NCBI GenBank assembly: GCA_050012255.1
Contig: JBEKHN010000001.1
Span: forward strand, 1-64,000
Length of the DNA: 64,000 nt
Source: Candidatus Bathyarchaeia archaeon
Lineage (GTDB): Archaea; Thermoproteota; Bathyarchaeia; Bathyarchaeales; Bathycorpusculaceae
Reading direction: 5' to 3'
Of this stretch, positions 5,472-40,437 are shown in pieces (position 1 is the stretch's first letter; each line of letters opens with the position of its first letter). The notes beneath the pieces were generated by a model that was not told the DNA's origin, did no database searches, and saw only the letters and a list, made by a program, of their open reading frames with translations. Made by a program: the position numbers and the translations under genes.

Positions 5472-5674
5472 ACTCTTTCCACCGTTATCAACATATTGAT
5501 AGCACGCGCAAGTGTACTACGTATTGTTCTGCAATAAACAGCTTTGACGCGTTTAGGTTGGACCTTAAAATAATAGCATGTGCCATTGCAACGAACTCGC
5601 TGACTCCAGCTCATCATCGCAAATAACGCAACAGTATCCTGAGGTCACAACTGGGTCCCTATTCTGAGTCCCTT

Positions 5675-15956: not shown

Positions 15957-17306
15957 ATGATCGATCTTTGGTTTGACAGGGGCACTCTTCTGCTGCGGGG
16001 GGACGTTGGGACTCCTTACGGAAAGTGGGACCCTAGGGTAGGGTGTTACAGGGTTAAGGCGTCGCATTACCGCGAAGTGCTGTCCTATCTGAGGGAGAGC
16101 ATGCTTCAGTTTCGGGACAGCGTTCCGAACCTTCCTCCGGTCGAGACTCTGGGCGGCGGGGTTGAGCTGCGTCCTTACCAGAGCGAGGCTTTGGTCAGAT
16201 GGCGGCGTGCGGGCAAGCGGGGAATTCTGGTGCTGCCGACCGCTGCTGGAAAGACGTTTATCGCGTTGAAGGCGATGAGTCTGTTGAAGACGCAGACTCT
16301 GGTCGTTGTTCCAACGTTAGATCTGATAGACCAGTGGAAAAGAAGAGTGCAAGAATGCTTCGGCGTAGAGGCGGGAACGGTGGGTGGCGGCGAATCCACG
16401 GTGAGGATGCTGACTGTGTCCACGTACGACTCGGCTTATCTGCAGGCCGATGTATTGGGCAACAGGTTCATGTTCATGGTGTTCGATGAGGTTCACCACT
16501 TGGCTTCGCCGGGTTACATGCAGATCGCTGAGATGTACATTGCGCCTTACCGTATGGGTCTGACGGCGACGTACGAGAGAAGCGACCAGAGGCACTCGCT
16601 TCTTCCAGCCCTTGTGGGCGACCTCGTCTATACCGTGGGCGTCGAAGAGTTGGCGGGAGAGCATCTTTCGCCGTACACGTACGAGAAGGTTTACGTTGAG
16701 CTGACTCCTGAGGAGCAGCGGGTCTACGATGGCGAGATGAGGGTTTTCAACGGTTATCTGAGGGAGAAGGGGATCGTTCTGAGGAGCGCTGAGGACTTTC
16801 AGAGGTTCATTATGTCCACCGGAAGGGACAAGCGGGCGCGAGAGGCTCTTCTGGCGAGAAACCGCGCGGTGAGAGTGGCGTTGAACTCCGAGGCAAAGCT
16901 GGACCTGCTTGCCAAACAGTTTGAAGCACATGGGTGTGAAAGGACGCTGATCTTCACGCTGCACAATGACCTGGTCTACAGGATAAGCCGGAGGTTCCTG
17001 ATACCCGCCGTGACTTATCAAACGCCGAAGCAGGAGCGCCGCGAGATCCTGGAAAACTTCAGAAACGGAAGCTACAGGGTGATAGTGACCTCTCAGGTTC
17101 TCGATGAAGGCGTGGACGTTCCTGAAGCTTCGTTGGGCTTCATCCTGAGCGGGACGGGAAGCACACGAGAGTACGTTCAAAGGCTTGGAAGACTGCTCAG
17201 AAAGGTTGAGGGAAAGCAGGCCAAGCTTGTTGAGATAGTCTCCAAGGAGACCGTGGAAGCGAGGATGAGCCGAAAACGGCATCAAAACCTAGACGGGGAG
17301 GCTTGA
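15957..17306 (+). CDS. xpb: XPB/Rad25-like SF2 DNA helicase
   Basis: LRPYQ, PTAAGKT, DEVH, GLTAT, LDEGVD and QRLGR motifs. Confidence 0.9.
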   Translation: MIDLWFDRGTLLLRGDVGTPYGKWDPRVGCYRVKASHYREVLSYLRESMLQFRDSVPNLPPVETLGGGVELRPYQSEALVRWRRAGKRGILVLPTAAGKTFIALKAMSLLKTQTLVVVPTLDLIDQWKRRVQECFGVEAGTVGGGESTVRMLTVSTYDSAYLQADVLGNRFMFMVFDEVHHLASPGYMQIAEMYIAPYRMGLTATYERSDQRHSLLPALVGDLVYTVGVEELAGEHLSPYTYEKVYVELTPEEQRVYDGEMRVFNGYLREKGIVLRSAEDFQRFIMSTGRDKRAREALLARNRAVRVALNSEAKLDLLAKQFEAHGCERTLIFTLHNDLVYRISRRFLIPAVTYQTPKQERREILENFRNGSYRVIVTSQVLDEGVDVPEASLGFILSGTGSTREYVQRLGRLLRKVEGKQAKLVEIVSKETVEARMSRKRHQNLDGEA

Positions 17307-21307: not shown

Positions 21308-21495
21308 TATTGTTTCATGCCCACCGCCCGGACAACCAGAAGACGCGCGCGCGGGCCTTGAGCTTCATGCTCCCTGTTTTTCGAAGTAGCATCTTCAGTC
21401 GTTCAGATCATTTACCTCGGTGGCCGCTGACTTCCATGAACTCGCGGGCTGATGATGTTTTACAAAAGTTCGTACGCCAGCGCGCGCTAGTGTGT

Positions 21496-21909
21496 CTAGG
21501 GTCTCGGGTGTCTTCTTTCTGCTACAACGATGAAGTGCAAGGCGGCAACTATGATTATCACTCCGACGAAGACGAGGAAGAGCGCACCTAGGAGCTGTGC
21601 GTCGAAGCCTCCGACTATTGAGAAGTAGAGAGAAGCTCCGAATATTATGAGCACTAGTCCACCGATGAGCGGTCCCAAGAACATGCGCTCATGTTTCTCT
21701 GTTTTCTCCCACTTTTCCGCCTTTTCGCTTTTCTCAGCCTGTCTTCTCTGCCTTCTTTGCTCTCTTCTCTGCTCCCTCCATTTCCTCCGTTTTGTCCTCC
21801 AATCATCTCTCCGATCCGCGGGCTGTTCCATCCTCAGCGGTGCGCCACATTTTGGGCAGAAGACCATTTTCTCATCCACTTCTGAACCGCACTTTGGACA
21901 ACGGGGCAT
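21496..21909 (-). CDS. Zinc-ribbon domain membrane protein
   Basis: CPKC..CPKC, charged linker, two TM helices. Confidence 0.85.
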   Translation of the reverse strand: MPRCPKCGSEVDEKMVFCPKCGAPLRMEQPADRRDDWRTKRRKWREQRREQRRQRRQAEKSEKAEKWEKTEKHERMFLGPLIGGLVLIIFGASLYFSIVGGFDAQLLGALFLVFVGVIIIVAALHFIVVAERRHPRP

Positions 21910-22087
21910 AACCTTTCGCTCCTTTAATGCCTACGCCCCTTGTTCCCCTTTAAGCTTGTGACAAGTCGAGTTAGATAGGCACAACGAACACTCTAGCATA
22001 ATGGTCCGCAAAAAAGTGATAGGCGGAAAATCTACTCTGCGAAAAGGAAATACTTCTTAAAGGTAGTCCAGCATCTAGGTTCTGGGA

Positions 22088-22276
22088 ATGCGCTTGCCAA
22101 GGTCTAAGTTAAGACCAGATGAAAGGGTGAACGCGGCAGTCTACATGTCGGACTTATGCTTGAACGTCTGCGCTGGTTCCATCAAAGATCAAGACTGCAA
22201 GATCACTGAAGAAGAACTTATGAAACGTGTGAGAGAACGAATCAGTTTTGGCAGGAGACGTTATCGCGAGGTTTAG
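22088..22276 (+). CDS. Small protein, putative partner/antitoxin of the downstream nucleotidyltransferase
   Basis: 62-aa ORF tightly coupled to the next gene. Confidence 0.55.
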   Translation: MRLPRSKLRPDERVNAAVYMSDLCLNVCAGSIKDQDCKITEEELMKRVRERISFGRRRYREV

Positions 22277-22279
22277 AAT

Positions 22280-22837
22280 CTGGAGACTTTTGAAGGATTT
22301 ATCAGAAGAATTGTGAAGAGCTTCAATCTTGCAGGGATAGATTATATGTTCACCGGAGCTTTGGCAGCGAGTTATTATGGTACGCCTCGCACTACGATGG
22401 ACGCAGATGTTATTGTCAGGATTTCATTAGAAGGTAGGAGCCGAAGCGAGTTTGAGTCCGCATTGAAGGAAGCAGGAGTGAATGTTGAAAAGCGCAGGAT
22501 CGACACGGCATTTAAATCCAGATTTAAGATAGCTACGTTCAAGGACAGCAGATCGCCGTTCACAGTCGACACGATTTTCTCAGGAAGGAAGTTGAACAAG
22601 AGACCGGGCACTATCCTGCGTCTACCAACGTTCTACCAGATCCCTGAAGAACTGATTTTGGCAAAGCTCCGTATGATAAAAGCAACGATTCCTAGGGAAA
22701 GAGCTTTCAAAGACATGGAAGACGTGAAAGCCATCTTGAAGTTCACCGAAGTAGATCTCAATGCCCTCAAGAGAAAGGCACGCATAAGCAACATGCTATC
22801 AATACTTGAAGACATAGTCATGGAAACAAAAGGCTAG
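22280..22837 (+). CDS. Nucleotidyltransferase (DUF6036-like)
   Basis: TGALAASYYGTPRTTMDAD, EELILAKL and KDMED motifs; probable CTG start at 22280. Confidence 0.8.
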   Translation: METFEGFIRRIVKSFNLAGIDYMFTGALAASYYGTPRTTMDADVIVRISLEGRSRSEFESALKEAGVNVEKRRIDTAFKSRFKIATFKDSRSPFTVDTIFSGRKLNKRPGTILRLPTFYQIPEELILAKLRMIKATIPRERAFKDMEDVKAILKFTEVDLNALKRKARISNMLSILEDIVMETKG

Positions 22838-22934
22838 AACGAGCAAACATGTGTTCGCGTGATCCAATAAATGAGCACGATTTCAATTGCAGAGTGGCTC
22901 ACGTGTTGGCTGTAACACAGCAAAAAGTCCATTG

Positions 22935-22967
22935 TGGTGCCGAGGGCCGGGTTTGAACCCGAGACAA
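22935..22967 (-). repeat. Outer att-like duplicate of the tRNA-Phe 3' end
   Basis: 22937-22959 is identical to 35536-35558 (23 bp); partial match continues to 22967; carries CCA. Confidence 0.92.
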
Positions 22968-23230
22968 GTAGAGACATCACTCGCGACTCCTCTTTCTTTG
23001 TGAACATTAGTAGCTCGCAACAACCTGCAGTCCGCCTATGGGAACCGAAGAAGAAGAGGCAGGGATTAGACTATTTCGGGCATTCGTTACTGAGCGAGTC
23101 GCGCCAGTTCGGTCGCTTGATCAGCAAAAAGGTTTTGCCTGTCTATGTTACCTGATGTGGACCGCGTAATAGTCTATTTTTCCGTGGTGCAAAAATCAAG
23201 AATATCGTGTGCGATGGTAAGTCTGAAAAG

Positions 23231-23650
23231 TCAAGTCTTCAGAAGCCTCGACCTTATGATTTTGGTGGCCTTCTCATGCAGCTTTCGGTCGGCAGTATAG
23301 AGCGTTGCATCTGTCTTGTGTGCCGCAGCTATGTAGAGTGCATCATATACAGCCATGTTGTGGTTCAGGGAAATGTCGAAAGCTTCTTCGGTCAGCTCGC
23401 GCGCTGTAAAGACAGGTAGACGGTCGTAGACCTTTTTGAGATCTTGGATCGCTGCTTTTCCATCTTCAATGCTGAGGTCCTTGTGGAGATTCGTGTGTTT
23501 CCATATTGCATTCAAGCATTCAGCCATGGCCAAATCGACAGTGTGGAGACCGCTACCTCTCTTCAAGAGCGTTGCAACGCTCGTCGCAGCTTCCTTGGAA
23601 CCAAGTTCGTTAACGACAATCTTCACCAGAATTGTGGAATCCAAGATCAT
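23231..23650 (-). CDS. vapC: VapC PIN-domain toxin
   Basis: MILDST, E, VYDALY and LYTAD PIN motifs. Confidence 0.93.
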   Translation of the reverse strand: MILDSTILVKIVVNELGSKEAATSVATLLKRGSGLHTVDLAMAECLNAIWKHTNLHKDLSIEDGKAAIQDLKKVYDRLPVFTARELTEEAFDISLNHNMAVYDALYIAAAHKTDATLYTADRKLHEKATKIIRSRLLKT

Positions 23651-23868
23651 TCCTGGCGTTCTCGGTCCTCCCTAATGAGTCTCGTCGAGTCCGTCCTTGT
23701 CTTTCTTTTTTCTGCCCTCGACTCTATCTCCTCAAGTGCCCTCAAAAGTTCAAGTTGACTGACTCGCTCCTCAATGAATCTTCTAACCTCTTCACTCCAC
23801 TTCACTGGATTCTGTTTCATTTTTTCTTTCAGCTCACGCGGCAGTCGCACAGTTATTGTTTCCGACAT
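23647..23868 (-). CDS. vapB: VapB ribbon-helix-helix antitoxin
   Basis: TITVRLPRELKEKM..WSEEVR..LIREDR; ATGA overlap with vapC. Confidence 0.9.
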   Translation of the reverse strand: MSETITVRLPRELKEKMKQNPVKWSEEVRRFIEERVSQLELLRALEEIESRAEKRKTRTDSTRLIREDRERQE

Positions 23869-24023
23869 GTGCACATCTCATGCTACTTGTTGTCGTACAG
23901 ACTTAAATAGCATTTTGTCACACATATTACTTCATCACCGAAGCTCTTAGACCTGGAGAGCAGAACCTTCAGGCTTTACTCAAAAAAACAGACTATCGAA
24001 GGCTAATCCAAAATCAATAGTTA

Positions 24024-24063
24024 TGGTGCCGAGGGCTAGATTCACACGAGCGTTTAAACCGTC
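24024..24063. repeat. Cassette-boundary repeat, copy 1
   Basis: TG-GTGCCGAGGGCTAGATTCACACGAGCGTTTAAACCGTC. Confidence 0.92.
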
Positions 24064-24118
24064 ATTTCAGTTTTCACACGTTTCTTGTCTAATTCTGGTT
24101 CTTTGTAAGCAAAATAGT

Positions 24119-24189
24119 GTTTGCCAAAATAACTTTAAAGGTGAACGGATATCTTTAAGTAGTTTGCCAAACAATAATAAAAGGTGAAC
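24119..24189 (+). promoter_or_regulatory. Two 28-bp imperfect inverted-repeat operators flanking a TATA box
   Basis: GTTTGCCAAA-N8-AAAGGTGAAC at 24119-24146 and 24162-24189, with TTTAAGTA between them. Confidence 0.8.
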
Positions 24190-24193
24190 ATCA

Positions 24194-24907
24194 ATGCCCC
24201 AATACTTGACAGAGTTTAATGAGAAATTGAGGCCGTTCAAAGGGAGTTTGGTTAGAGTAAAGTCTGTAAAAAGCATCGAGCCAAATGCCAAGGAATACTT
24301 GAACAAGTTGTCCAAGGAAGGCTTGATTGAACGGATCAAGTGGGGTTGGTATTGGGTTCCTGCTATGATCAAAGACGTTTGGGAGTTTTTGGAGAAAGAC
24401 AAGAGCTTTAAAGTAGTCTCCGCCCAAACCGCGGCATCATTCTGGAATAACGACTTTGTTCACAGAGATGTTTACGTCTTGAAGGTCAAAGAAAAGTCGT
24501 ATGGAAAGGCATTGAAAGAGTTCGCAAGAAAAAAGGGCTGGAGCATTGAAGTCGAATACTTGAAGAACCCTGCTAAGATCAAGTACAGGAAAGTCGGAAA
24601 CTTGCTCGTTGAGGACATCGAGGAAAATGTAATTGCGTGTTTGCAAAACTGGGCTTTCACAGACGCATTTGCCACTTTGTATGAAAACAGAGGCAAGATC
24701 AACTTGAACAGATTGTACAAAGAGTCTTATTGGAAGAGGATTTCCAAGACGAACGTTAGGGCCAAACAGGCCTTGGAGTACGGCTTCCATCAGTTGGGCG
24801 AATTAAGCGGCAAGGTAGAATTTCCACACAGAGAAACCAAATTGGAAGATGACTTCGTTAAAAGAGAAATCGATGAAGCCATTGAGAAGGTTGTTGAACT
24901 TGGTTAA
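24194..24907 (+). CDS. AbiEi-like winged-helix antitoxin/regulator
   Basis: LNKLSKEGLIERIKWGWY winged-helix wing; coupled to a nucleotidyltransferase gene. Confidence 0.7.
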   Translation: MPQYLTEFNEKLRPFKGSLVRVKSVKSIEPNAKEYLNKLSKEGLIERIKWGWYWVPAMIKDVWEFLEKDKSFKVVSAQTAASFWNNDFVHRDVYVLKVKEKSYGKALKEFARKKGWSIEVEYLKNPAKIKYRKVGNLLVEDIEENVIACLQNWAFTDAFATLYENRGKINLNRLYKESYWKRISKTNVRAKQALEYGFHQLGELSGKVEFPHRETKLEDDFVKREIDEAIEKVVELG

Positions 24908-25637
24908 GCACTCTGAAATAATGAACCTGAGAGAGGAAGAAATCAGAAGAATAATCGAGCAGTTGTCCAAGCAGACCGACGGATTTGAAAATCCGAAAAT
25001 AGTTATGATTGGCGGTTATGCCCTCAGAGCGTTTACGTCACTCTCGCGATACACAAGAGATTGCGATTTTGCCCTAAAGAAATCAGACGGTTGGAATCTG
25101 GACAGAATGCAAAAGTTGCTGCCTAAGGTTTTGAGTACAGAAGTTCTTGAGAAAAGAGATAGCTACGGTTTTCTGAGGTGCATTAAGCTTCTAAAGGTGA
25201 ATGGCCGAAGCGTTAAAATCTCAATTGATTTCATGGAAGGAGAAGTGCGCGGAAGAACCGAAGAACAAGTATTCTTCATAACTGAAAAATTCTTACGGAG
25301 GGCCAAGAAAGTGAAGATTCCCATTGCCGAAGAAATGATTGAAATCTACATTCCTGATTACGCTGACTACATGATTCTTAAGATGATGTCTGCAAGACCC
25401 AGCGACATAAGAGACATAGCCACATTAATCTGGAAAAATGGCGCCCCAGACGATATCGAGCAAAGAGCCAAGAAGACGCTAGCCGACCCAGAGATACTGA
25501 AGAAAAACCTAAGACTCATAATCACAGATATTTCCGACAAACGATTTTTGGATTCATGGAAGGGAACATTCGTAACAACAGAATTCACAGAAAAAATAAG
25601 GGAGCAAGTTCTGAAAGAGTTGAAGAAACTATTATGA
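24900..25637 (+). CDS. AbiEii-like nucleotidyltransferase toxin
   Basis: IGGYAL, SRYTRDCDF and K...R.SDIRDI motifs; TTG start at 24900. Confidence 0.8.
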   Translation: MVKHSEIMNLREEEIRRIIEQLSKQTDGFENPKIVMIGGYALRAFTSLSRYTRDCDFALKKSDGWNLDRMQKLLPKVLSTEVLEKRDSYGFLRCIKLLKVNGRSVKISIDFMEGEVRGRTEEQVFFITEKFLRRAKKVKIPIAEEMIEIYIPDYADYMILKMMSARPSDIRDIATLIWKNGAPDDIEQRAKKTLADPEILKKNLRLIITDISDKRFLDSWKGTFVTTEFTEKIREQVLKELKKLL

Positions 25638-25731
25638 CTTGGCGAAAATTCTTGGAGTCTCCAACAAATGCCCACAAAAGACGTTCAACCTATGCCTAGG
25701 CAGCTAAAATAAGCTCGAAGTAAACTTGAAA

Positions 25732-25769
25732 GTGCCGAGGGCTAGCTTCACAGGAGCGTTTACACCGTC
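25732..25769. repeat. Cassette-boundary repeat, copy 2
   Basis: GTGCCGAGGGCTAGCTTCACAGGAGCGTTTACACCGTC. Confidence 0.92.
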
Positions 25770-25867
25770 GTTAAACGTTTACTTGTTATTGTTAAAGTGT
25801 TTACAATTGTCTCGACCTGCATAACAGAGATGAAATGTATTTAAATTTCGGAAGCCATATCTCGATT

Positions 25868-26194
25868 ATGAATTGTCCATTTTGCAAAGTTCCCATGACA
25901 AAAGGATACTTATCTCTACTGGGCGACGGTTCAGCGCTGTATTTTTGTGAAGAAAGGATTTCCTACACGACAGGGAGACGGGGTAAGAAGAAGGAAGCTG
26001 TTCTGGAAGGTGGTGCATTTGGGTTGGCTTGGGAAGAAGATTATTCTAGAACGGCTTACAAATGTAACGAATGCAACGCGATCGTTCTTGAGGGAAAACC
26101 GAAACCCGCCTACATTGATGCTGCTAGGGCTGCTGAAGCCGAAACTGACAAAGAAAATTTGAAGGACAGAATTCGTCAGACATGCAGATTTTAG
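25868..26194 (+). CDS. Small zinc-ribbon protein (DUF6487-like)
   Basis: MNCPFCKVPMTKGYL...AYKCNECNAIV. Confidence 0.7.
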   Translation: MNCPFCKVPMTKGYLSLLGDGSALYFCEERISYTTGRRGKKKEAVLEGGAFGLAWEEDYSRTAYKCNECNAIVLEGKPKPAYIDAARAAEAETDKENLKDRIRQTCRF

Positions 26195-26576
26195 TTTTCT
26201 AAATGGGAGACTGAAGTGTATTGGTTGCGTTACCTCGTAAGAAATGGACAATGAATTTGAAGTGCGTGCTTAGCCAGAAAACTGAGGTGTATGCTGTTGG
26301 ATCTCTACAGCATGATCTTCAGGGGCCTGAGCAACTAAGACAGTGTGTGATGAAATCAACAGTTTGGTTTCCGATTCAATATGGACTCAGATTTCATTGG
26401 CTGCAAAATCTCTTCATGATTCTCGATGAACTGACTCGATCAGAATTGAGTTGACTGAGAAGGTGAAGCCGTGACAAAAGAGGACCAGAATGAACACTTT
26501 TAGCAACGTTCTGTACTAATCGAATTGCCTTTTTTACCTCAAAAAGGGAGATAGTTCCTGAACCATCGGAGATTTC

Positions 26577-29500
26577 CTAGCCAAATTGGAGGTTTTGTAT
26601 GCGGCTGTTGTAGGTGGTGGTTCCCCAGTAGAACGTGGATGTTGTCCAGTTGTAAGGCCTGATGTAGTAGGCGTAGGTGTAGTAGTAGGCTGTCCAGGTT
26701 GTTGCTTGGAGCGTGGTGGCTTGAAGCTGCTCGGTTGTGAAGGTTGCGCACAGGGTCCAGCCTGACCCGCCGACTTGAACGTAGACGCGTATGACGAGGG
26801 AGTCTGTCTGCTGCAAGCCTGCTTGGGCCACTGAGACCGTGCCGCCCTGAATGCCCGACCCGCTGCTTCTCCAAACCACAGCCTTCGGCGTTCCCGTTTG
26901 ACCGTCAAGGCTTATCTCCTGTTCAACGCCGTTCGAGTGACGGACCCAGGCTCTTATGCCCCAAGAGGCTCCGTATCCGCTTCCGGACTGTGTGACGTAG
27001 GCGCTGCTGGTTGACTCTGGAATGTTGAGTTTGTAGGCGTTTAGGCCGTTTATGGTTTGGGTGTCGCTGCGCATGTACCGGCCGTAATAGACGTTTACGG
27101 AGCCGCTTGACACGCTACAGGCTATGGGCTGGGCTGTGCTGTTTCCGAGCTTGACGTCGGTCAGTGTCAGAGAGGTTGTTCCCGGCTGCAACGCCTGGAA
27201 CGTGAGCGTTGCCATGTTCATTGAACCGTTGAAGGATGGTGCCGGGTAAGTGGCGGCTTGAGCCATCCAATAGCGCGCGCACGTAGCGTTATATGTGGGT
27301 TGTAGGCCTGCACCGAAGTTCTGCGTGTTGTTCTGCCACTCAGTCGGAGTTTGGACAACGGCGTTCGTACAGTTTAGCAAATTACTGTTCCAGTAGAGCT
27401 TGAACTCCCAGCCGGAAAGATCATTGACGTTCGTGATCGTCACGCTAACCGCAAACGTTTCACCCTTAAACACTGTGAGCTGACTCGGGTTTACGGCTAC
27501 GGCTGCGCCTGCGTTAAGCATGGTGTTTGCCCCCATCGCAGGTGTGCCAATCTGGCTGCTTTGTCCCGAGGCGCCTCCGACCGAGTGTCCAAAGCTGCCT
27601 GCTAAGAGTATAGCGTCGTAAATGTCTACGCAGTTGTCGTTGTTCATGTCGGCGCTCGCGTTCCAGTTTGGATTTCCTGGACAGCTGTTGAAGGCTTTTG
27701 CAAAAAGTATAGCATCGTAAATGTCAACGCTTTCGTCAAGGTTTATGTCACCTGTGAGGCTGCTTAACGAGCACGAGTACACGCCTGAATGGGATATTGA
27801 ATTAGAATCTGAACCAGGGTAGATCCTGATGTACCATGGTCCAAATAAGTTGCCGTACGTCTTCACGTGTTCTGTCTGACCGGCTGGGTTGTTAGACGAA
27901 GCAACGAGCCCATCGAGCCCGCTCGAATTGTAGAGTCGGACGTCGAAATCTACGTAATTCGGCGGAGTCATATCAAAGTAAATGCCCTTCTTGTTGCTGT
28001 CGCTGAAGTTGAAAGTGTACCAGTCCTCAGGGTCAGGGTCTTGGCCATAAAGATACCCGTGGAAGACCGCATTAGGCGTTGCATAAGTTGCAGTTGCGAG
28101 CGTGTTGCCTGCATCGCCTTCATGTCCAGCATCATTTTGGCCAGCGCCATCGAACCACACCGAAATCTGCAGCGTATCATCAACGGAGAGTGGAGGTGGG
28201 TACGCGTTATACCAATTAGCAGTCGCGTTGACCCTGTAGTGAAGAGGCAGGGTTCTCCATCCGTATCTGCCTGTGACTGGTATTTTGACTGTCACTTTTT
28301 GAAAAGTAATGAATTCGCTGTAGGTTGTGCTGCCATTTGTAGTCACCGTGTTGTGCGGTGCGTAAATATACTCAGAGTAATGGTCGAAACTATCGATTCC
28401 TCCCCAATAGTTTTGGCACTGATAACTTGCCCATTGAGCAGCAAGTCTGACTCCGCCCAAGCCCCAAAGGATGTAACGCGCGATCATCGCGTTTGCGCTC
28501 GTACCCAGAAGGCCAGGCACGCCCAAGAACCACATTAGACCGAGAGCCAAGAAGGTTATCAGCGGGAAAACGCCCGATCCAAACCCGTTCAGCGTATCTC
28601 CGTAACCTTTTCCCTCTCTAGAGTCACTCATTTTGGCATTGGTCCAGACATCCTGCCAGTTCCACTCGTTATTAGTAGGTTCTACCAAGAAATAGGCTGA
28701 CTGATACGTGGCCCATAGGCCGCCACCACTCTGAATTGCCCCGTAAATAGGAAACACCAAGTCCATTGCCAAATTAGATGACTGATCAGTGTAGTACACA
28801 TTTGATATCAGTGGTTGCACTGCTAGTGTCCCATTTTGGATAGTGAGAACACCTACAGGATTTGAATATGCATCAAATTTTCCTTGAAAATTCCAGCTCT
28901 CCAAGCATGCCGCTGCAGCAGTTCCGATGAGGCCTTTCAAATAATCGCCAGAATGAGTGCCGTCAGTGAAGTTGCTGCCAATGCCCAGATGCACGTAAGT
29001 TCCAGGCCCGTTGCTACTCATGGATCTCTGGTTGACATTCGAGAAAGGCACTACTGCACCTGGCCAGTAGTTCTTTCCAGTGTCTGGGTCGGTGTAGTAA
29101 AATAGGGGAAAAGCATTGTATTCTCCGAACTGGTCGTTTCTGAGCGGATTTCCCACAGGTGCCTCAAACGCAGCATTAAGCTGCCAACTGGTCCTAGGCT
29201 CGGCATCGTAATCGGCAAATGTCGTCGTCGGGTGATGGATTACACCAATTGGGGTGAGAAGATCCGCATCCTGAATTCCTATAGTGCTCATGAGCCTCCT
29301 GAAACCTGCGCCAATCGTTGTTCCATTACCTGAGACCTCAGTCCAGTCGCCCTCGTTTGTTCCGTTTTCATAATAGACTTTGTGAAATGTGTATCCGCCG
29401 CAATGGATCCACGAGAGTCTGCGAGTCGACATGGACTCTGAGATCTTGTCAACCCATGCTGTTTTGTTATAAGTGTTTGGGACTGGCAGATAGGCTCCAT

Positions 29501-29851
29501 GAGTGTTTACGATTATTGAACCAACAGTGCTCTCGACAATTTCTCGGTATCTGCTCCATGTTGTAACTGCTTCTGGCGTTACCTGGTACCAAGGACTGTA
29601 GTCCACATTCCGTTTCGGATGAGCCCTAGGACCATTAAACTGTATGTAGTTACCCGTCGGCAGACATGCGTTGATCGCACCAATTCGGATCTGGTCTTGG
29701 TTGATTACTCCGTCGGTTGGCACAGTGCTCAATTCAAGTATGTAGACGTTCGCTTCGCCAGAAGAAGCCTTAGCCTCGAAAACAAAGGAAAAGAAAGGAG
29801 CAAAACAGGCAGAAGAATTAGCGCAACCAACAAAATACATTCTGTTTTCAT
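26577..29851 (-). CDS. Large secreted multidomain protein (PPC-like, dockerin and cohesin domains), apparently frameshifted in its signal peptide
   Basis: DPEDWYTF/DFDVRLY PPC-like domain; GDINLDESVDIYDAIL/ADMNNDNCVDIYDAIL dockerin; GETFAVSVTITNVNDLSGWEFKLYWN cohesin; signal peptide in a different frame from ATG 29851. Confidence 0.8.
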
Positions 29852-31242
29852 GTAACTTGCATCTCCTCGTCTCTTTCCACGTCTTTTTGTTTGCGTTTTG
29901 GGTACACGCCTGTACGAATGACGACAATGCCTACAAAGACGGAAAATACCCCTGAGACCAACACGGGAATATTCACAGGCCTCGAAGAAGAGGCGGCAAG
30001 TGCGGCTGCTTCGGAAGCATAGGACCGTGCTATTTTGTACTTTCCTGCCGCATAGGAATCAAGAGCCTTTTGGAACGCGGCTTTTGCCGCGTCCAATCCC
30101 ACGATTCTGCCGTCATTAATAGCATTTTGAATTAACTCCGACGCGCTTTCTCCATACGACCCATAGAGCTTGCTTATAGAATATGAATATTCAGAATAGA
30201 TTGCTGCGGCCATAGGAACATAACCCGCTATGAAGTCCGGTTGACCACCGCCACCAAAACCGCCGTAGAAGCCTGAAGTCCCCAGATGAACGTAGACGCC
30301 GAAGTTGAAGCTCGAGCTGTTCTGAGCGAATAACATTGCTGCGTGGAACTCTTTTCCAGCGCCATAAATGGGCATGATCATGTTGCCGCCAAAGTCGTCC
30401 AATCTAATGGGATACCCGACCGACATTTCCTGTTTTGTCGGAAGAAGCCACCAACTCTTGAGAACGTTCGTCAGATCAGTATCGCTGAAGACGCTGAACT
30501 GGCCACTAGGGTAGCAAGTGACGTTCACCTTTCCTATGTGACCCATCAACCCGGCATACCCTGCCGCCCCCCACTCACTCGCTGTCCCATTCTCATACCA
30601 CACACTGTGGAAGGGGTAGCCGCCGATGTGAACCCAGGTTCCCCAACGATTAAGCATGAAATCAGAGAGTTTGTCAACCCATTCCTCCCTCGTATAACCA
30701 GATGGAACAGGAAAATACTGGTCGTGAGTGTTAACAATTATAGTGTCATTGCCCTGCTCGATAACGGACTCGTACGTTCTCCAGTCTTGGACCAAAACGT
30801 ATGATACATTCACCTTAATGTTGGCAGCTAGATCGTTTCCTGCCAGTCCAATATTGACGTGCTTGACCCCATTTTCTCTTGGAGTGATCTCCACTGCCTT
30901 CAGCACACCATCCAATACAGCCGAATGATTTGACAAATAGACGTTCCCGACCTCGGGCAAGCTAACGACATAGACAGTCAGAGGAAACACTTGATCACTG
31001 ACTATGGTGTAGCCCAAGGGATTCGCGTCCGTTGAAGGATACTTAACGAGTTTGAAAAGGGAGTCCTGTGATGAAAAGTCAGAAGCGCGCAAGATTGGAA
31101 TGTAACAAAACATCAATCCTGCTAGAAGTGCAACCAGAAAAGATCGTGAAGACCTCTGCCATGGGAAGCCAGCATTCCCCATGTGCGATTCCATCCCCTC
31201 TCCAATTATTCGGCTGTTTCTATTTAAGCGTTTCTTCTGCAT
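29848..31242 (-). CDS. Membrane-anchored extracellular protein, paralogous to the N-terminal domain of the downstream gene
   Basis: N-terminal hydrophobic segment, C-terminal TM helix; shares IIVNTH..Y.PVP, W.H.GGY.FH and G.YVHLG motifs. Confidence 0.8.
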   Translation of the reverse strand: MQKKRLNRNSRIIGEGMESHMGNAGFPWQRSSRSFLVALLAGLMFCYIPILRASDFSSQDSLFKLVKYPSTDANPLGYTIVSDQVFPLTVYVVSLPEVGNVYLSNHSAVLDGVLKAVEITPRENGVKHVNIGLAGNDLAANIKVNVSYVLVQDWRTYESVIEQGNDTIIVNTHDQYFPVPSGYTREEWVDKLSDFMLNRWGTWVHIGGYPFHSVWYENGTASEWGAAGYAGLMGHIGKVNVTCYPSGQFSVFSDTDLTNVLKSWWLLPTKQEMSVGYPIRLDDFGGNMIMPIYGAGKEFHAAMLFAQNSSSFNFGVYVHLGTSGFYGGFGGGGQPDFIAGYVPMAAAIYSEYSYSISKLYGSYGESASELIQNAINDGRIVGLDAAKAAFQKALDSYAAGKYKIARSYASEAAALAASSSRPVNIPVLVSGVFSVFVGIVVIRTGVYPKRKQKDVERDEEMQVT

Positions 31243-31537
31243 CGAACACGCTCTTTTTTAGAAAGAAACCAAGCGTATTTTTGACACTGGCGAATCAAAA
31301 GTGTATGAACTGCAAAATAAACTAAGAATCTGCAGGTACTCTGTGGACGCAGGCACTGAAAGTCTTAAAGCGCGCTCAATCCCAGAAAAACCTGTCGGCC
31401 TGTAAACGTCCCAGAATAAGCCAAACTGGTCCTAGAATCATTTTTAAGTATCATTTCGTGCTCGCTCCTTTTCCATCTTGCTTGGTCTATCAGAACCGCT
31501 GCCAATAGATTGCGCGGATGAACTCGTTGGCCAAAAT

Positions 31538-31575
31538 GTGCCGAGGGCTAGCTTCACAGGAGCGTTTAAACCGTC
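31538..31575. repeat. Cassette-boundary repeat, copy 3
   Basis: GTGCCGAGGGCTAGCTTCACAGGAGCGTTTAAACCGTC. Confidence 0.92.
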
Positions 31576-31692
31576 ACTCCCAGATTAACATGTTTCTATC
31601 AAACTCGTGCGCTCTCTTTCAATCAGCGCGCGCCCTTTTTTATCGGGCGGAAGCAGAAAGGAACCAATTTTCAAGCTTTCTAACGTATGATA

Positions 31693-32349
31693 TCAATTAA
31701 TGTATTCTGTTGGATCATCTATCTTTGCTTCCTTGAAGGCGTTCTTCCTGTTCAAGCATGACTCGCATCTTCCACAATGCTTTTCTTCCCCTCGATAGCA
31801 AGACCATGTGAGCTCAAAAGGAACCCCAAGCTGCTTTCCAATTTTCAGTACTTCTGATTTCTGTAGGTTGCTGAAAGGAGCTTCAATTCGGATTTCTACA
31901 CCTGTTCCCAGTCTGGCTGTATTCTCAAAAGACTTGTAGAATTCTTTCCGGCAGTCTGGGTAAAAACGGTCATCTGAGCCTTGTGCTCCATAGAACACTT
32001 CTGTAGCTTCGATCGAGATGGCGTAGGCAACTGCAACAGAGAGGAATATTGCATTTCTGAAGGGAACTATTATTGGTTGAGTGAAGGTTGGGGTCAGCTC
32101 GATATTTTTGTCGCAGAGTGCAGTTACTCCAGTAAATATATCTTTCAAACAGCTTATATCGATGATCTTGATTGGGATGTCGAGCCTCTCAGCGATGAGA
32201 TTTGCATATTTGGCTTCTTTTTCTGCTATCTGACCGTATTTGAACGTCAAAGCATGAACTTTGTAGCCTTGCTTTTTTGCCCAATATGCAACGACTGCGG
32301 AATCTGGTCCTCCACTTAGTACAACAATGCACTTGTTTGCCTTAGTCAA
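31693..32349 (-). CDS. queC: 7-cyano-7-deazaguanine synthase
   Basis: SGGPDS, VPFRNAIFLS, YPDCR and TWSCY..HCGRCESC motifs. Confidence 0.97.
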   Translation of the reverse strand: MTKANKCIVVLSGGPDSAVVAYWAKKQGYKVHALTFKYGQIAEKEAKYANLIAERLDIPIKIIDISCLKDIFTGVTALCDKNIELTPTFTQPIIVPFRNAIFLSVAVAYAISIEATEVFYGAQGSDDRFYPDCRKEFYKSFENTARLGTGVEIRIEAPFSNLQKSEVLKIGKQLGVPFELTWSCYRGEEKHCGRCESCLNRKNAFKEAKIDDPTEYIN

Positions 32350-32352
32350 AGC

Positions 32353-32832
32353 TTACTCCCACCATTTGAACCTTAACTCAATCATTTTGAAGACAAATGC
32401 ACCCATCAAGCATACCAATTGTTCACTTATCAGAAGGTAAGGAAACGTTGCCATCCAGGGTAGATCGAAAAGCTGGTTTAGCATCCAACTGACGCCTACG
32501 GGTACTATCACTGCGATGATTGCGCCTTCGATGAAGTAGTTTTTGCTGAATCTTTTGGCGACGACAAAGCCTATGATTCCCGCAGCTAGACTTACTAGTG
32601 GCATGAAGACGAGTTCATATGGTCCAGAAAACGGACTGAAGAGATTCCCCACGACTACTCCAAATGCATAGCCTATGCTCAGGATCCATTTCTTGGCAAT
32701 CGCCGGTCTTAGCACACCCGCAACCCTGAATTGCAACGCGTAAAAAGACAATGGAGCAAAGAAATAGACCAATACTGCGTATAAAGATGCAAAGACGCTT
32801 GCCAACGCTACGTCCTTAGTCTTTATTCTCAA
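32353..32832 (-). CDS. queT: QueT family transporter (ECF S component)
   Basis: ASLYAVL..PLSFYALQFRV and G...GNLFSPF motifs; in operon with queC. Confidence 0.88.
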   Translation of the reverse strand: MRIKTKDVALASVFASLYAVLVYFFAPLSFYALQFRVAGVLRPAIAKKWILSIGYAFGVVVGNLFSPFSGPYELVFMPLVSLAAGIIGFVVAKRFSKNYFIEGAIIAVIVPVGVSWMLNQLFDLPWMATFPYLLISEQLVCLMGAFVFKMIELRFKWWE

Positions 32833-32839
32833 TTTTCAA

Positions 32840-32900
32840 CCTCCTACACCGGGGTTTATGTTGGCGGAACGGGTGGAGGCCCACTCACCCGCCATTCTGC
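32840..32900 (-). promoter_or_regulatory. Structured 5' leader of queT-queC, candidate preQ0/preQ1 riboswitch
   Basis: TGGCGG/CCGCCA stem, A-rich linker and CCCCGG next to the GGAGG Shine-Dalgarno; TATA at 32921-32927. Confidence 0.5.
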
Positions 32901-33216
32901 TTCGCATATTCGAGATTACTCTTAAAAGCCTTTGGGGCGCGGGCTAACCCTGTTGAGACTTTGCCCTCCGATCTACTCAAGGCATTTTGCCAACAGTCAG
33001 AGCTTGCTTGGCCACAACACTGAATAGCATTAGGCTGAACGATCCTACGGAGCAGGACCCTTCAACGTTGACATAGCATGGCATCGTTTGTCCAATCTGC
33101 CATGTCTTGGATATATCGCGCATTATTTTTCTTGGTAGTCGTGTGCACTGGAACGTGATAGGAGAAAACTTAAATCTGTCCCATAATTGTGTTCATTATC
33201 CTATTGTCGTGATGAT

Positions 33217-34125
33217 ATGAGAGTAACGAAAGAGATCATCGAAGAGAAAGGAACTGATAGGTTGAAGAGAGGATTCGCCAAGATGTGCAAGGGTGGAGTG
33301 ATAATGGACGTCGTAAACGGAGAACAGGCAAAGATTGCCGAAGACGCTGGAGCTGTCTCTGTTATGGCTTTGGAGGCAGTGCCCGCAGACATACGCGCCA
33401 AGGGCGGAGTGGCAAGGATGGCTGACCCGCAGAAAATCAAAGAAATAATAAATGCTGTCACGATTCCTGTTATGGCCAAGTGTAGGATAGGTCATTTTGC
33501 AGAAGCGCAGGTAATCGAAGCTCTAGGAGTGGATATGGCTGACGAGAGTGAAGTGTTAACTCCTGCAGATGAAGAAGATCATATCGACAAGAGAAAGTTT
33601 ACAATTCCGTTTGTTTGTGGGGCAAGAAACTTGGGTGAAGCCCTAAGAAGAATAAACGAGGGTGCGGCGATGATAAGGACGAAAGGTGAACCCGGGACTG
33701 GAAATGTGGTTGAAGCTGTGAGGCACATGAAACTTGTGAATCGAGAGATAGCTGAATTGGGAAAGATGGCAGAGCCACGACTGAAGGAAAAAGCGGAGGA
33801 GTATCGTGTGCCGTTGAAACTGGTTATAGAAACGAGGGATTTAGGAAGGTTGCCCGTAGTGAATTTCGCTGCAGGAGGCATTTCAACTCCGTCCGATGCA
33901 GCTTTGATGATGCGATTGGGCGCAGACGGCATATTTGTCGGTTCAGGAGTGTTCAAATCTAAGAATCCAAGAGCGTATGCTAAGGCAATCGTTGAAGCTA
34001 CTATGCATTATGACGATCCGAAGACTCTGGCAAGAGTTTCTGAAGGCTTAGGTGAACCGATGGAAGGAATCGACACTTCAAGAATGGATGAAAAACAGAA
34101 AATGCAGACACGGGGAACCAATTGA
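33217..34125 (+). CDS. pdxS: PLP synthase lyase subunit
   Basis: [31 protein letters not shown] and FAAGGISTP motifs. Confidence 0.98.
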
Positions 34126-34721
34126 AGATTGGAGTCATAGCCGTACAAGGCACTATTTCTGAACACGTTGAAGCCCTAAGAAAAGCGATGGAAAAATCAA
34201 AAATCGACGGTAGTGTTGTGTACGTAAGAAGCCTGAAAGATCTTAATGATGTTTCAGGTATTGTTGTGCCAGGCGGTGAATCAACAACAATAAGCAAACT
34301 CATACTGAGCGCAGGAATGCACGAAAAAATAGCTGAACTCGCAAGAAAAGGAGCGCCAATCCTTGGAACCTGCGCTGGTACAATTCTGTTAGCTAAGGAA
34401 GGCGATGAAGAGGTCAGGAAGACCTGTACAAAATTGCTGGGTTTGTTAGACATGAAAGTCCTCAGAAATGCTTATGGCAGACAGGTAGACTCCTTCGAGG
34501 CTGATGTAAACATACCTGAGATTGGAGACAAACCTTTCAGGGCAGTGTTCATCCGTGCGCCAACGATAGAAAGAGTTTGGAACGGCACCAGAGTGTGGGC
34601 TGAACATAAAGGTACGATTATAGGAACAAAAAAGGAAAACATCTTGGCTTTGACTTTTCATCCCGAGCTAAGTGATGATCTAAGAATTCACGAATACTTT
34701 CTTACAATGACGACAGGATAG
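34122..34721 (+). CDS. pdxT: PLP synthase glutaminase subunit
   Basis: [23 protein letters not shown] and FHPEL motifs. Confidence 0.98.
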
Positions 34722-34775
34722 CTCGCTGCCTTGTCCCTAAATTATAGGCGGCAAGATCTACAGGCTTCTTTTAAT

Positions 34776-35114
34776 TTAACGGTTTTTGAGGTTCAAAACG
34801 TTCCGCAAGGCCAAAAGAATTGGAACACCGACGACGAGGGTGATTAACACGACAAGGGCATCTTCAATGAAAGAGTCAACCCCACTGCCCACAAACCCAA
34901 CTGCGGTAGCTGCCGGAGATAAGCCCAGAACACTGCTGTACAGCCCAGCTGGTATGAACAGGAAAACTCGAGTTAGACCGTCTGTAGCGACTGTTATGAA
35001 CGACACTATGACTAGGGATACGGGAAGAAGCTTCACTTTCTCATTGAACAAGTTTTTGCTCAACTTGGCAGCAGGATATACCAAGCAAACGGCAACGATG
35101 GTGTCGAGCATCAC
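34776..35114 (-). pseudogene. C-terminal fragment of a membrane protein (possible ECF S component)
   Basis: Three to four TM helices that begin mid-protein at the junction with the EndoQ fragment. Confidence 0.5.
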
Positions 35115-35248
35115 TTCGGAAGCAAAGAGTCTCCAGTTCCAACTAAATCGAGGCCTTTGAGTTTTGTGAATTTGGCAAGGTTTTCCAACGTCAGGTCCTT
35201 TGATGCCCCAGGATAACAGGAGAAGTGTATATGCAGATCAACGTACAT
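35111..35248 (-). pseudogene. N-terminal 45-aa remnant of a TIGR00375/EndoQ PHP-family gene
   Basis: DLHIH...SKDLTLENLA....KGLDLVGTGD, then an immediate stop. Confidence 0.8.
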
Positions 35249-35536
35249 GTTCTCTAATACATTCTCGCACTTATTCGTATAAATATTATATTGATTTGCA
35301 TGTGTGGAGTCCTCGTAGGTAATCAAGCAAGATGAAAGGTGACATCGAGGCAATTCTGAAAACTTCAGATATATCCGGAAGACAACACACAATCATCTGA
35401 GTTTTCCCACCGTCCAGCGCGGAAGCGGTTCAAACCCCAGAGTAAAATCAAGGGAAATTAAAGAAACAAACTCGTAGATTTTCAGTTAGAATTCTAAAAT
35501 AGTCGCAGACTAGGCCTTATTTAAGAATTGGGGATG

Positions 35537-35638
35537 TGCCGAGGGCCGGGTTTGAACCGGCGACAACTCGGTCTTCAGCTTCGCCCTCGCTGTTTAAGCT
35601 AGCGAGACGAGCGCTCTCCCAGGCTGAGCTACCTCGGC
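35537..35638 (-). tRNA. tRNA-Phe(GAA) with a 28-nt intron at position 30/31; CCA not encoded
   Basis: Removing 35580-35607 gives the anticodon arm CTCGG-CTGAAGA-CCGAG; complete bulge-helix-bulge motif. Confidence 0.95.
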
Positions 35639-36102
35639 ACTGACAACCAAAAAGTGGCAGGGTGTGTTTTTAAGTTTTCTGAGCGTTATGCTGGAAATTG
35701 GGGCGCAAGCACGATTTCAGCTTATGGGAGATTAAGCCAAAAGGAGAAGAGAGAATGGATAAATCTCCAGGCTTGCACCCCGACTTCAATGCGTATGGCA
35801 CCCCCAAAAAAGCTTTGTGGAACAAAGTTTCACAACCAATCAGACTGGAAGCTTAACTCGCGACGCCGACGACGGTCAGAGCAGATGAACTACAACATAG
35901 CCAACAAAAGCAGATGCTAAGAAAAGCACGACCATCAAGACCTCATCGATCTGCTTTTCCTCTTTGAAACGGCCATCATCCTTGGTACCGCGCAACTTGG
36001 CTCATCTCTACTCTTTCTTGGACCTCCTTTACGGGAAAGGCTTTATGAAGCTGAAACAAGTATTCCAAATCTTAGGCGAGGAAAAACAAGTTTGGACAAA
36101 TA

Positions 36103-36206
36103 GGGCTCGTAGTCTAGTTTGGTAGGACGTCGCCCTCACAAGGCAGACTCGCGCGCGCCTGAGGAGGCGGCGAAGATCCCCGGTTCGAGTCCGGGCGGGC
36201 CCACCA
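36103..36206 (+). tRNA. tRNA-Val(CAC) with a 27-nt intron near position 37/38; CCA encoded
   Basis: Acceptor GGGCTCG/CGGGCCC and anticodon stem TCGCC/GGCGA; removing 27 nt (about 36141-36168) gives a 77-nt tRNA. Confidence 0.9.
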
Positions 36207-40364: not shown

Positions 40365-40437
40365 TCAATTCACCTTAGTCTCTGGTTTGCGGTTCAGCCT
40401 TCACGGCTACATCCCAGCGGATGTCTGATCCGCCATT
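40365..40437 (-). promoter_or_regulatory. Structured 5' leader, probable eL15 ribosomal leader
   Basis: GCGGAT/ATCCGC hairpin, GGGATGT, AGCC-GTGAA-GGCT hairpin, GAACC..AAACCAG ahead of the Shine-Dalgarno. Confidence 0.65.

Follow-up and report, generated by a model that had tools for sequence, protein, structure and literature searches.

A segmented region behind a tRNA-Phe gene

We examined a 64,000-nucleotide stretch of DNA from Candidatus Bathyarchaeia archaeon (GCA_050012255.1, contig JBEKHN010000001.1; hereafter the window), in which short direct repeats divide the DNA next to a tRNA-Phe gene into modules of unrelated gene content, a region that we read as an array of captured gene cassettes. 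Coordinates without a label count from window position 1. G000 stands for this genome and C1, C4, C36 and so on for its contigs; G001 and higher numbers designate other genomes, L loci or contigs, and X sequencing runs.

The tRNA gene (35537-35638, - strand; Rfam tRNA, 48.5 bits) is the presumed attachment site, and its last 11 bases form the core of the repeats. It contains an intron, because of which ARAGORN mis-called its anticodon (the calls for the intron-bearing tRNAs of the window, aaa or Ala-cgc, were wrong); judged from its sequence, it reads as tRNA-Phe, with a CTGAAGA loop once the intron is removed. Intron-less homologues are present in other genera, and the one at L183, which has the same 3' end, was called tRNA-Phe(gaa). 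Introns occur in both window tRNAs (35537-35638 and 36103-36206), that of tRNA-Phe being placed in the anticodon stem region and not at the canonical position.

A first-pass annotation of this DNA had reported three near-identical 38-bp direct repeats, each made of the last 11 bp of tRNA-Phe followed by 27 bp of conserved non-tRNA sequence. We recovered all three on the + strand, at 24026, 25732 and 31538, while 100 shuffles gave 0 matches, and their first 11 bases are identical to the first 11 of the reverse-complemented tRNA at 35536/7. The 27-bp remainder is indeed conserved, but conservation continues for about 27 bases past the 38-mer, so that each site comprises an 11-base tRNA-end core and a conserved non-tRNA arm of about 55 bases. 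Site 1 thus occupies 24026-24090 (+; core 24026-24036, 27-base arm 24037-24063, then the conserved extension), and core, arm and extension span 25732-25796 (+) in site 2 and 31538-31603 (+) in site 3.

The three sites are all intergenic and divide the region into vapBC, AbiE-like, dockerin/cohesin and queC/queT/pdxST modules, as first annotated and as borne out by Pfam. Module 1 (22961-24025) holds vapC (23231-23650, -; PIN domain, E 3.6e-10), a putative vapB in the form of a small open reading frame (ORF) upstream of it (23647-23874, -), and a 73-amino-acid ORF overlapping the arm. In module 2 (24064-25731) lies the AbiE-like pair, a 237-amino-acid ORF (24194-24907, +) and an AbiEii/DUF6036 gene (24849-25637, +). 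Module 3 (25770-31537) carries three genes, encoding a DUF6487 protein (25835-26194, +), a dockerin/cohesin protein (26577-29927, -) and a 464-amino-acid paralogue (29848-31242, -); its genes have paralogues on C2 and C16. The composite module 4 (31576-35536) contains queC (31693-32349, -), queT (32353-32832, -), pdxS (33187-34125, +), pdxT (34122-34721, +) and two small ORFs (34776-35114 and 35111-35392, both -). It ends next to the tRNA in a 166-base sequence (35370-35536, +), an arm common to several different cassettes: a 94% identical copy lies on C4, and the same sequence stands at the tRNA-side end of cassettes in L085 (twice), L068, L071 and G004.

We also considered pdxST as a displaced housekeeping operon and rejected this origin: the genes are single-copy here and a pseudogene in G001, and the query used returned none in G007, G004 or G027. 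The pdxS pseudogene of G001 (C1:2195678-2196597), with several in-frame stops, is 88-90% identical to the window pdxS and lies about 2 kb from a region homologous to the C4 island described below.

The distal boundary of the region, at 22937-23002 (+), had been taken for a plain outer copy of the tRNA. A tRNA-Phe end copy is present, identical at 23 of 24 bases (22937-22960) and tRNA-like to about 31 bases, but it runs into a conserved non-tRNA stretch and belongs to a second arm family, which we call the Y arm; by sequence match, the same non-tRNA stretch recurs in G027, G004, L078, L081, L084 and L095. A Pfam scan of the proteins of Y-bounded segments found no integrase. From these sequences, the outer boundary of module 1 uses the Y arm, and only three of the four internal boundaries use the 38-mer arm. 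The proposal that one common arm bounds all modules thus stands for the three internal boundaries and fails at the outer one, with its 31 tRNA-like bases.

Comparison with relatives of the same genus indicates that the whole region was added to the chromosome. In the complete genome G001, the counterparts of window 21360-22965 and 35536-36204 are contiguous; in G007, the homologue of window 21360-21459 follows within about 90 bases of the tRNA. In both genomes, then, the site is empty, and the flank found left of window 22937 stands before the tRNA end. Since these flanks are contiguous at the tRNA, 22961-35536 (about 12.6 kb) is, on sequence comparison, an insertion at the tRNA-Phe 3' end, which agrees with the original proposal. 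With the tRNA 3' end repeated directly at its two borders and an empty site in relatives, the region bears the marks of a tRNA-targeting integrative element or genomic island.

Sites and cassettes in related genomes

We searched species genomes, metagenome contigs and viral contigs with an arm pattern of 23 specified bases and found 58 sites in 55 other contigs, 4 of them species-genome contigs (all Bathyarchaeia) and 51 metagenome contigs. The core was exact at 44 sites, a variant with at most 3 changes at 11, missing at 2 and cut by the contig end at 1. A conservation profile drawn from 47 distinct sites rises abruptly with the first base of the core; the sequence to the left shows no conservation. 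The arm includes TTTAAA and a second A/T-rich box, as well as repeated CGTTTAAAC-like boxes. After a profile search had added weaker sites to the loci, the sites so detected within each locus were all direct repeats, and the tRNA, present in 15 of the 55 loci, was always on the arm side, 1.3-4.6 kb beyond the last site. The viral contig collection gave no match for the arm pattern or for the 23-base tRNA copy, and we rejected a viral origin on this ground.

Folding of the three window sites as single-stranded DNA, run for each strand and against 200 shuffles, gave structures no better than those of the shuffles (-2.3 to -6.1 kcal/mol, z -0.15 to +1.26); an attC-like hairpin is thereby rejected, as the annotation had anticipated. 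A tRNA-like fold of the arm was considered by eye and dropped, and Rfam scans of the window and of C4/C36 gave only true tRNAs. A GC-only palindrome of the form AGCGCGCGCT recurs near sites (window about 31640-31650, the left flank of C36, L075, L105 and L106), and a AGCGCGCGCT-type palindrome takes the place of the core in two loci. The only inverted pair of arm sites seen is in L196 (G247:C5), at 5619 and 7662, 2 kb apart and with identical left flanks.

The content and order of the modules vary widely. A metagenome contig of a close relative (L103 and L063, 93-98% identical) reads flank, core and arm, module 2, core and arm, queC/queT, tRNA; it lacks modules 1 and 3, and the alignment breaks lie precisely in the repeats (L103 for module 1, L063 for module 3). 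In G027, from another genus of the same family, the Y arm with its tRNA-like copy is followed by a 1.5-kb segment resembling module 1, a core and arm, the AbiE module and the tRNA, modules 3 and 4 being absent. The AbiE cassette (24026-25742) is 86% identical in G027, versus 68-78% for flanking chromosomal genes. This module 2 cassette is also present in L064, L065, L066, L079, L109 and L110, and in another genus and four metagenome loci it is the only module that separates the arm from the tRNA. In L065, AbiEi is 90% identical, versus 39% and 60% for the chromosomal proteins beside it, which points to transfer of the cassette. In G003, part of module 2 lies about 1.1 kb from the tRNA-Phe, with no arm detectable.

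Wide variation was likewise apparent over the 64 sites with both flanks, where 42 left types and 34 right types occur in 48 combinations; the AbiE cassette is preceded by 5 different neighbours and the queC cassette by 4. The tRNA-adjacent cassettes differ between loci and encode the AbiE pair, a NosD/dockerin protein, a PAS histidine kinase, radical SAM enzymes, a hydrolase, a dehydrogenase or an oxidoreductase. The smallest cassettes measure 1.3 kb, with the arm directly beside intact cargo. All together, these comparisons of sequence support the 38-bp repeats as cassette boundaries, and the reading of the region as a cassette array is well supported.

Two further copies of the 38-mer lie outside the window in the same genome, at C4:16741-16778 and C36:6009-6046. 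C36 carries arm and core beside a flank that matches that of G007, for which reason it probably comes from a co-assembled strain and marks the outward end of that strain's array. On C4, a fragment resembling the 3' part of another tRNA lies about 140 bases past the arm (L011:7550-7601) and has matches of 84-93% in G001 and G007. Similar tRNA-end-like fragments stand about 25 bases beyond many arm sites in another genus. A repeat of about 205 bases (C4 about 16940-17145; L011:7941-8145) abuts the 166-base arm and overlaps a 139-amino-acid ORF without Pfam match. This genome contains 25 or more copies of it, 80-92% identical, and G001 at least 30; it looks like a miniature mobile element.

The arm is also found behind other tRNAs. 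Arm-like sequence follows the tRNA-Leu(GAG) end on C35, equal to the window's first arm at 26 of 33 positions, and looser relatives follow the tRNA-Trp and tRNA-Lys ends. A relaxed arm pattern, run on 246 genomes of the same family, each at least 85% complete, gave 70 matches in 44 genomes, and the reversed pattern, used as control, 4. We read the cores before the arm in 30 of the loci so returned: 15 were Phe-type, 14 belonged to five other types (3, 2, 5, 3 and 1) and 1 was cut by a contig end. Two of the five non-Phe types are exactly other tRNA ends of this genome. The same cassette end was seen with two different cores, and arrays of two direct sites also exist for non-Phe cores. Judged from these sequences, the arm does not belong to tRNA-Phe alone.

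At least 10 other tRNAs of the genome have a downstream partial copy of their own last bases, 0.15-38 kb away. Next to tRNA-Cys on C4, a 44-base stretch (L011:14401-14444; C4 about 23400-23443) is 90-100% identical at many places in G001, G004 and G007, and a 15-base copy of the tRNA-Cys 3' end lies about 150 bases downstream of the gene. Elsewhere in the window, at 40386-40433 (-), we noted a match to the Rfam eL15 ribosomal protein leader (Euryarchaeota; 42.4 bits versus a gathering score of 33.7), here in a Bathyarchaeia genome.

Candidate recombinases and competing explanations

No integrase had been recognised in the region at first annotation, and this was confirmed. A six-frame search with PF00589 across the whole genome gave 12 matches, none of them within the window, where no integrase fragment was found either; the nearest lies at C1:297680. 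Pfam, run on all larger ORFs of 21496-35920, gave the same result. Among 49 scanned proteins (19 window ORFs and 30 proteins from other bounded cassettes), none reached the Pfam cut-off for a recombinase or transposase. A split integrase of SSV type was rejected, as there is no integrase-like ORF or six-frame match at 22937, at 35536 or at the internal sites. Two recombinase loci elsewhere in the genome may be described here. Around C1:297212-306029, three tyrosine recombinase genes are clustered, two of them on the same strand and overlapping by 4 bases (303292-304557 and 304554-306029), a cluster that we take to resemble recombinase-in-trio elements. On C6 (4365-5755 and 42638-42824), an exact 16-base copy of the tRNA-Gln end lies 38 kb downstream of the gene, directly after an integrase gene, and an integrase fragment lies beside the tRNA; the region looks like a conventional large integrated element.

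A tyrosine recombinase that accompanies the sites, sought as the annotation had advised, was found beside two of them. The frameshifted tyrosine recombinase gene of L108 ends 30 bases ahead of a core and arm. In G223 (L170/L194), a 460-amino-acid homologue ends about 55 bases before a different core and arm, and a second site follows 4.9 kb further on. The L071 array has the C-terminal fragment of an integrase on its outer flank. The integrase of L113 was set aside as enzyme of the arrays: it stands beside tRNA-Met and is probably part of another element. In this genome, no copy of the L108 family is followed by a core and arm. Sequence proximity makes the recombinase family of about 460 amino acids a candidate for the enzyme, and only a candidate, because the family is widespread and has no site-adjacent copy here, and no closely related integrase is shared by the site-bearing genomes.

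We consider serial site-specific capture of non-autonomous cassettes, by a recombinase acting in trans, the best explanation of these data, and think it probable. The array at 22961-35536 would have been built through repeated site-specific integration at the tRNA-Phe 3' end. Its unit would be a recombinase-free cassette of 1-6 kb that carries one or a few genes and whose attachment site reads, in order, a variable end, the 11-base core equal to the last bases of the tRNA, and the conserved arm of about 55 bases. Crossover of a presumably circular cassette within the core would restore the tRNA and leave core and arm at the far side of the cassette, and each later insertion at the tRNA would displace the earlier cassettes outward. 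The enzyme would most likely be a tyrosine recombinase acting in trans, with the family of about 460 amino acids as candidate. The arm would be the putative protein-binding part of the site and the core need only match the target, so that cassettes could be retargeted to other tRNAs. More tentatively, and with clear reserve, the same may hold for the lineage as a whole: dozens of kinds of recombinase-less cassettes, each with the arm and an exchangeable tRNA-end core, would form arrays behind several tRNAs, be moved in trans by lineage-specific tyrosine recombinases of about 460 amino acids, pass from one tRNA to another by a change of core, and so constitute an independently arisen archaeal analogue of integrons.

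Several observations speak against capture in trans. No integrase adjoins any of the five sites of this genome, and a full integrase is adjacent at only 2 of the about 95 sites examined. The L108-type family, searched in 151 genomes of the archaeal family, occurs in 116, often in multiple copies, a spread too wide for its presence to have diagnostic value. This genome and four other site-bearing genomes have no integrase in common above 42% identity, and a dedicated enzyme of the site-bearing genomes was thus not found. The C4 copy of the site (166-base end, core and arm) lies near tRNA-Cys, within a different 7-kb insertion relative to G001 and G007, and shows that the site can also occur away from the tRNA-Phe locus; the proposed anchoring at tRNA-Phe holds for the 15 loci that include the tRNA, all with the tRNA on the arm side, but not for this copy or for arms with other tRNA cores. 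Within module 4, L063 is 98% identical as far as 32935, and the remainder on the right (pdxST, the two ORFs and the 166-base end) is replaced there; the breakpoint at 32936 carries no site, so that this module is composite, and four clean modules is too simple a description. Hybrid arm extensions (L066 and a joint of run X2) indicate that ordinary homologous exchange between arms also occurs, and the Y-bounded segment L095 has a DDE transposase match below threshold (E 1.4e-4, 22.4 bits versus a cut-off of 27). Finally, no unambiguous circle junction was seen in the assembled contigs of four runs, and none of the 64 sites links the two ends of module 2, right to left, as a circle junction would. 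These runs came from four studies, none of them the likely source of the assembly. In run X3, contigs join module 2 to a different cassette and the 166-base end to an arm; in run X4, a contig joins the 166-base end to site 3, which fits a circle or a tandem arrangement. With their short sides and 90% likeness, such joints are weak hints only, and regions that lacked coverage were left aside.

The main rival to capture in trans holds that the modules are decayed remains of integrase-bearing elements that entered the tRNA serially, in the manner of tycheposons, and later lost their integrases and most of their genes by deletion, the shuffling being homologous recombination between repeats of 40-70 bases. 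Tandem tRNA integration with degenerate remnants is indeed known for tycheposons, as far as the available part of that report goes (10.1101/2020.12.28.424599). The partial copies downstream of at least 10 other tRNAs, one of them with a far-end integrase and an integrase fragment by the tRNA, would fit such decay, as would the hybrid arm extensions and the integrase fragment flanking the L071 array. Nevertheless we think decay unlikely, if worth serious attention. No integrase fragment is left in any of the six frames of the window, 0 of the 49 cassette and module proteins reached the recombinase cut-off, and cassettes down to 1.3 kb keep the arm beside intact cargo. Moreover, the non-tRNA arm is conserved across hosts whose neighbouring proteins share only 39-60% identity, the same cassette appears at different array positions and with different tRNA cores, and 11 bases of tRNA homology are too short to yield precise tRNA-side junctions by homologous recombination.

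Three other readings appear far less credible. That the arm is a regulatory element, for example a TTTAAA-box promoter of accessory genes, would account for its TTTAAA and second A/T-rich box and for the - strand gene that starts 150-300 bases to the left of 2 of the 3 window sites. We judge this very improbable, since genes lie beside sites in both orientations, and the fusion of a tRNA-end core to the arm, the fixed orientation to the tRNA and the insertions and deletions that end exactly at sites would be left unexplained. There is hardly any likelihood, in our estimation, that the cassettes are transposons, the 11-base repeats being target-site duplications made by a transposase that targets tRNA ends. 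The short core duplicated at every junction and the weak DDE match of L095 would suit a transposon, but no terminal inverted repeats are common to the two ends (one end is conserved and the other is not), there is no transposase in or beside the cassettes, and the outer copy and Y arms share 23-31 tRNA bases, which is not a fixed duplication length. An assembly chimera, in which unrelated contigs were joined through the repeat of 38-66 bases, seems to us just as improbable. A repeat of this length can mislead short-read assembly, contamination of the genome bin stands at 5%, C36 seems to derive from another strain as the end of its array, and contigs of other runs break at the repeats. Yet the separately assembled 127-kb metagenome contig L094, which may share the source sample, has all three sites with identical flanks, and the junctions between flank and module 2 and between module 2 and queC (L103/L063) and between modules 1 and 2 (G027) were seen in independent assemblies; the joints of module 2 with module 3 and of module 3 with module 4 are the only ones without independent support.

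Relation to known capture systems

Capture in trans at this locus would share several traits with integrons. Unrelated small cassettes, each with one conserved recombination site at one end, are arrayed in direct orientation behind a fixed entry site, their order and content are shuffled among relatives, and the cargo consists of toxin-antitoxin pairs, surface proteins and metabolic genes. In contrast to integrons, there is no integrase gene beside the entry site, the sites have no hairpin fold, cassettes enter where a tRNA gene ends and the core varies with the target tRNA. Integron cassettes are mostly promoterless single genes under a common promoter, whereas the cassettes described here hold one to several genes in either orientation. 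Integrons proper have been reported in archaeal metagenome-assembled genomes (PMC9668308).

Closer in their use of tRNAs are the tycheposons. According to the available part of their description (10.1101/2020.12.28.424599), these elements integrate serially at tRNAs, leave partial tRNA copies between neighbours, push older elements outward and carry adaptive cargo, all features shared by the array. Tycheposons of the described type encode a tyrosine recombinase themselves and have partial tRNAs as bounds, whereas the array has no recombinase, a non-tRNA arm and only 11 shared tRNA bases; an element-encoded integrase, a mark of tRNA-targeting elements, was not found in the window with PF00589 or Pfam. 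The distinction is drawn against that integrase-bearing type, and integrase-less tycheposons may exist. SSV-type integrases, which split their own gene on integration (PMC7253208), are likewise archaeal, tRNA-targeted and able to leave captured DNA behind, but no integrase halves flank the array or its cassettes.

Like non-autonomous elements, the cassettes lie between two attachment sites and contain no genes for recombination. In staphylococci, recombinase-less elements resembling staphylococcal cassette chromosomes (SCC) are stacked at rlmH. Cis-mobilizable elements, too, are flanked by attachment sites, lack a recombinase of their own and are mobilised by that of a relative (PMC5704250, PMC7563491). 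The array has in common with both groups its attachment-site repeats as bounds, the missing recombinase and the tandem stacking at the 3' end of a conserved gene. Those elements are bacterial, come in few kinds per site and derive from a known autonomous element with the same site; the array, in contrast, is archaeal, comprises dozens of cassette kinds, uses a modular site of arm and core, and has only a candidate helper.

The first-pass annotation knew of no earlier account of the site family. A literature search, which did not cover subscription journals and supplementary files, found no description of it, a text search for two 13-base arm strings returned unrelated papers only, and the available part of a paper on Bathyarchaeia viruses mentions integrases and no such sites. 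The site family thus appears to be undescribed. Tandem accretion at tRNAs and recombinase-less elements flanked by attachment sites were, however, already known, and for this reason the system is less unprecedented than first claimed.

For the annotation of Bathyarchaeia genomes, the array explains many small accessory islets behind tRNAs and flags the repeats as able to break or mis-join assemblies. A constant arm joined to a target-matching core would explain how cargo hops between tRNA loci. If cassettes do move in trans, this would be a second, integron-independent route to modular gene capture. Bathyarchaeia are abundant and uncultured and their gene exchange is poorly known; for this lineage the locus offers concrete, testable parts, namely a site of about 65 bases, a tRNA-end entry point, many natural cassettes and a candidate enzyme family.

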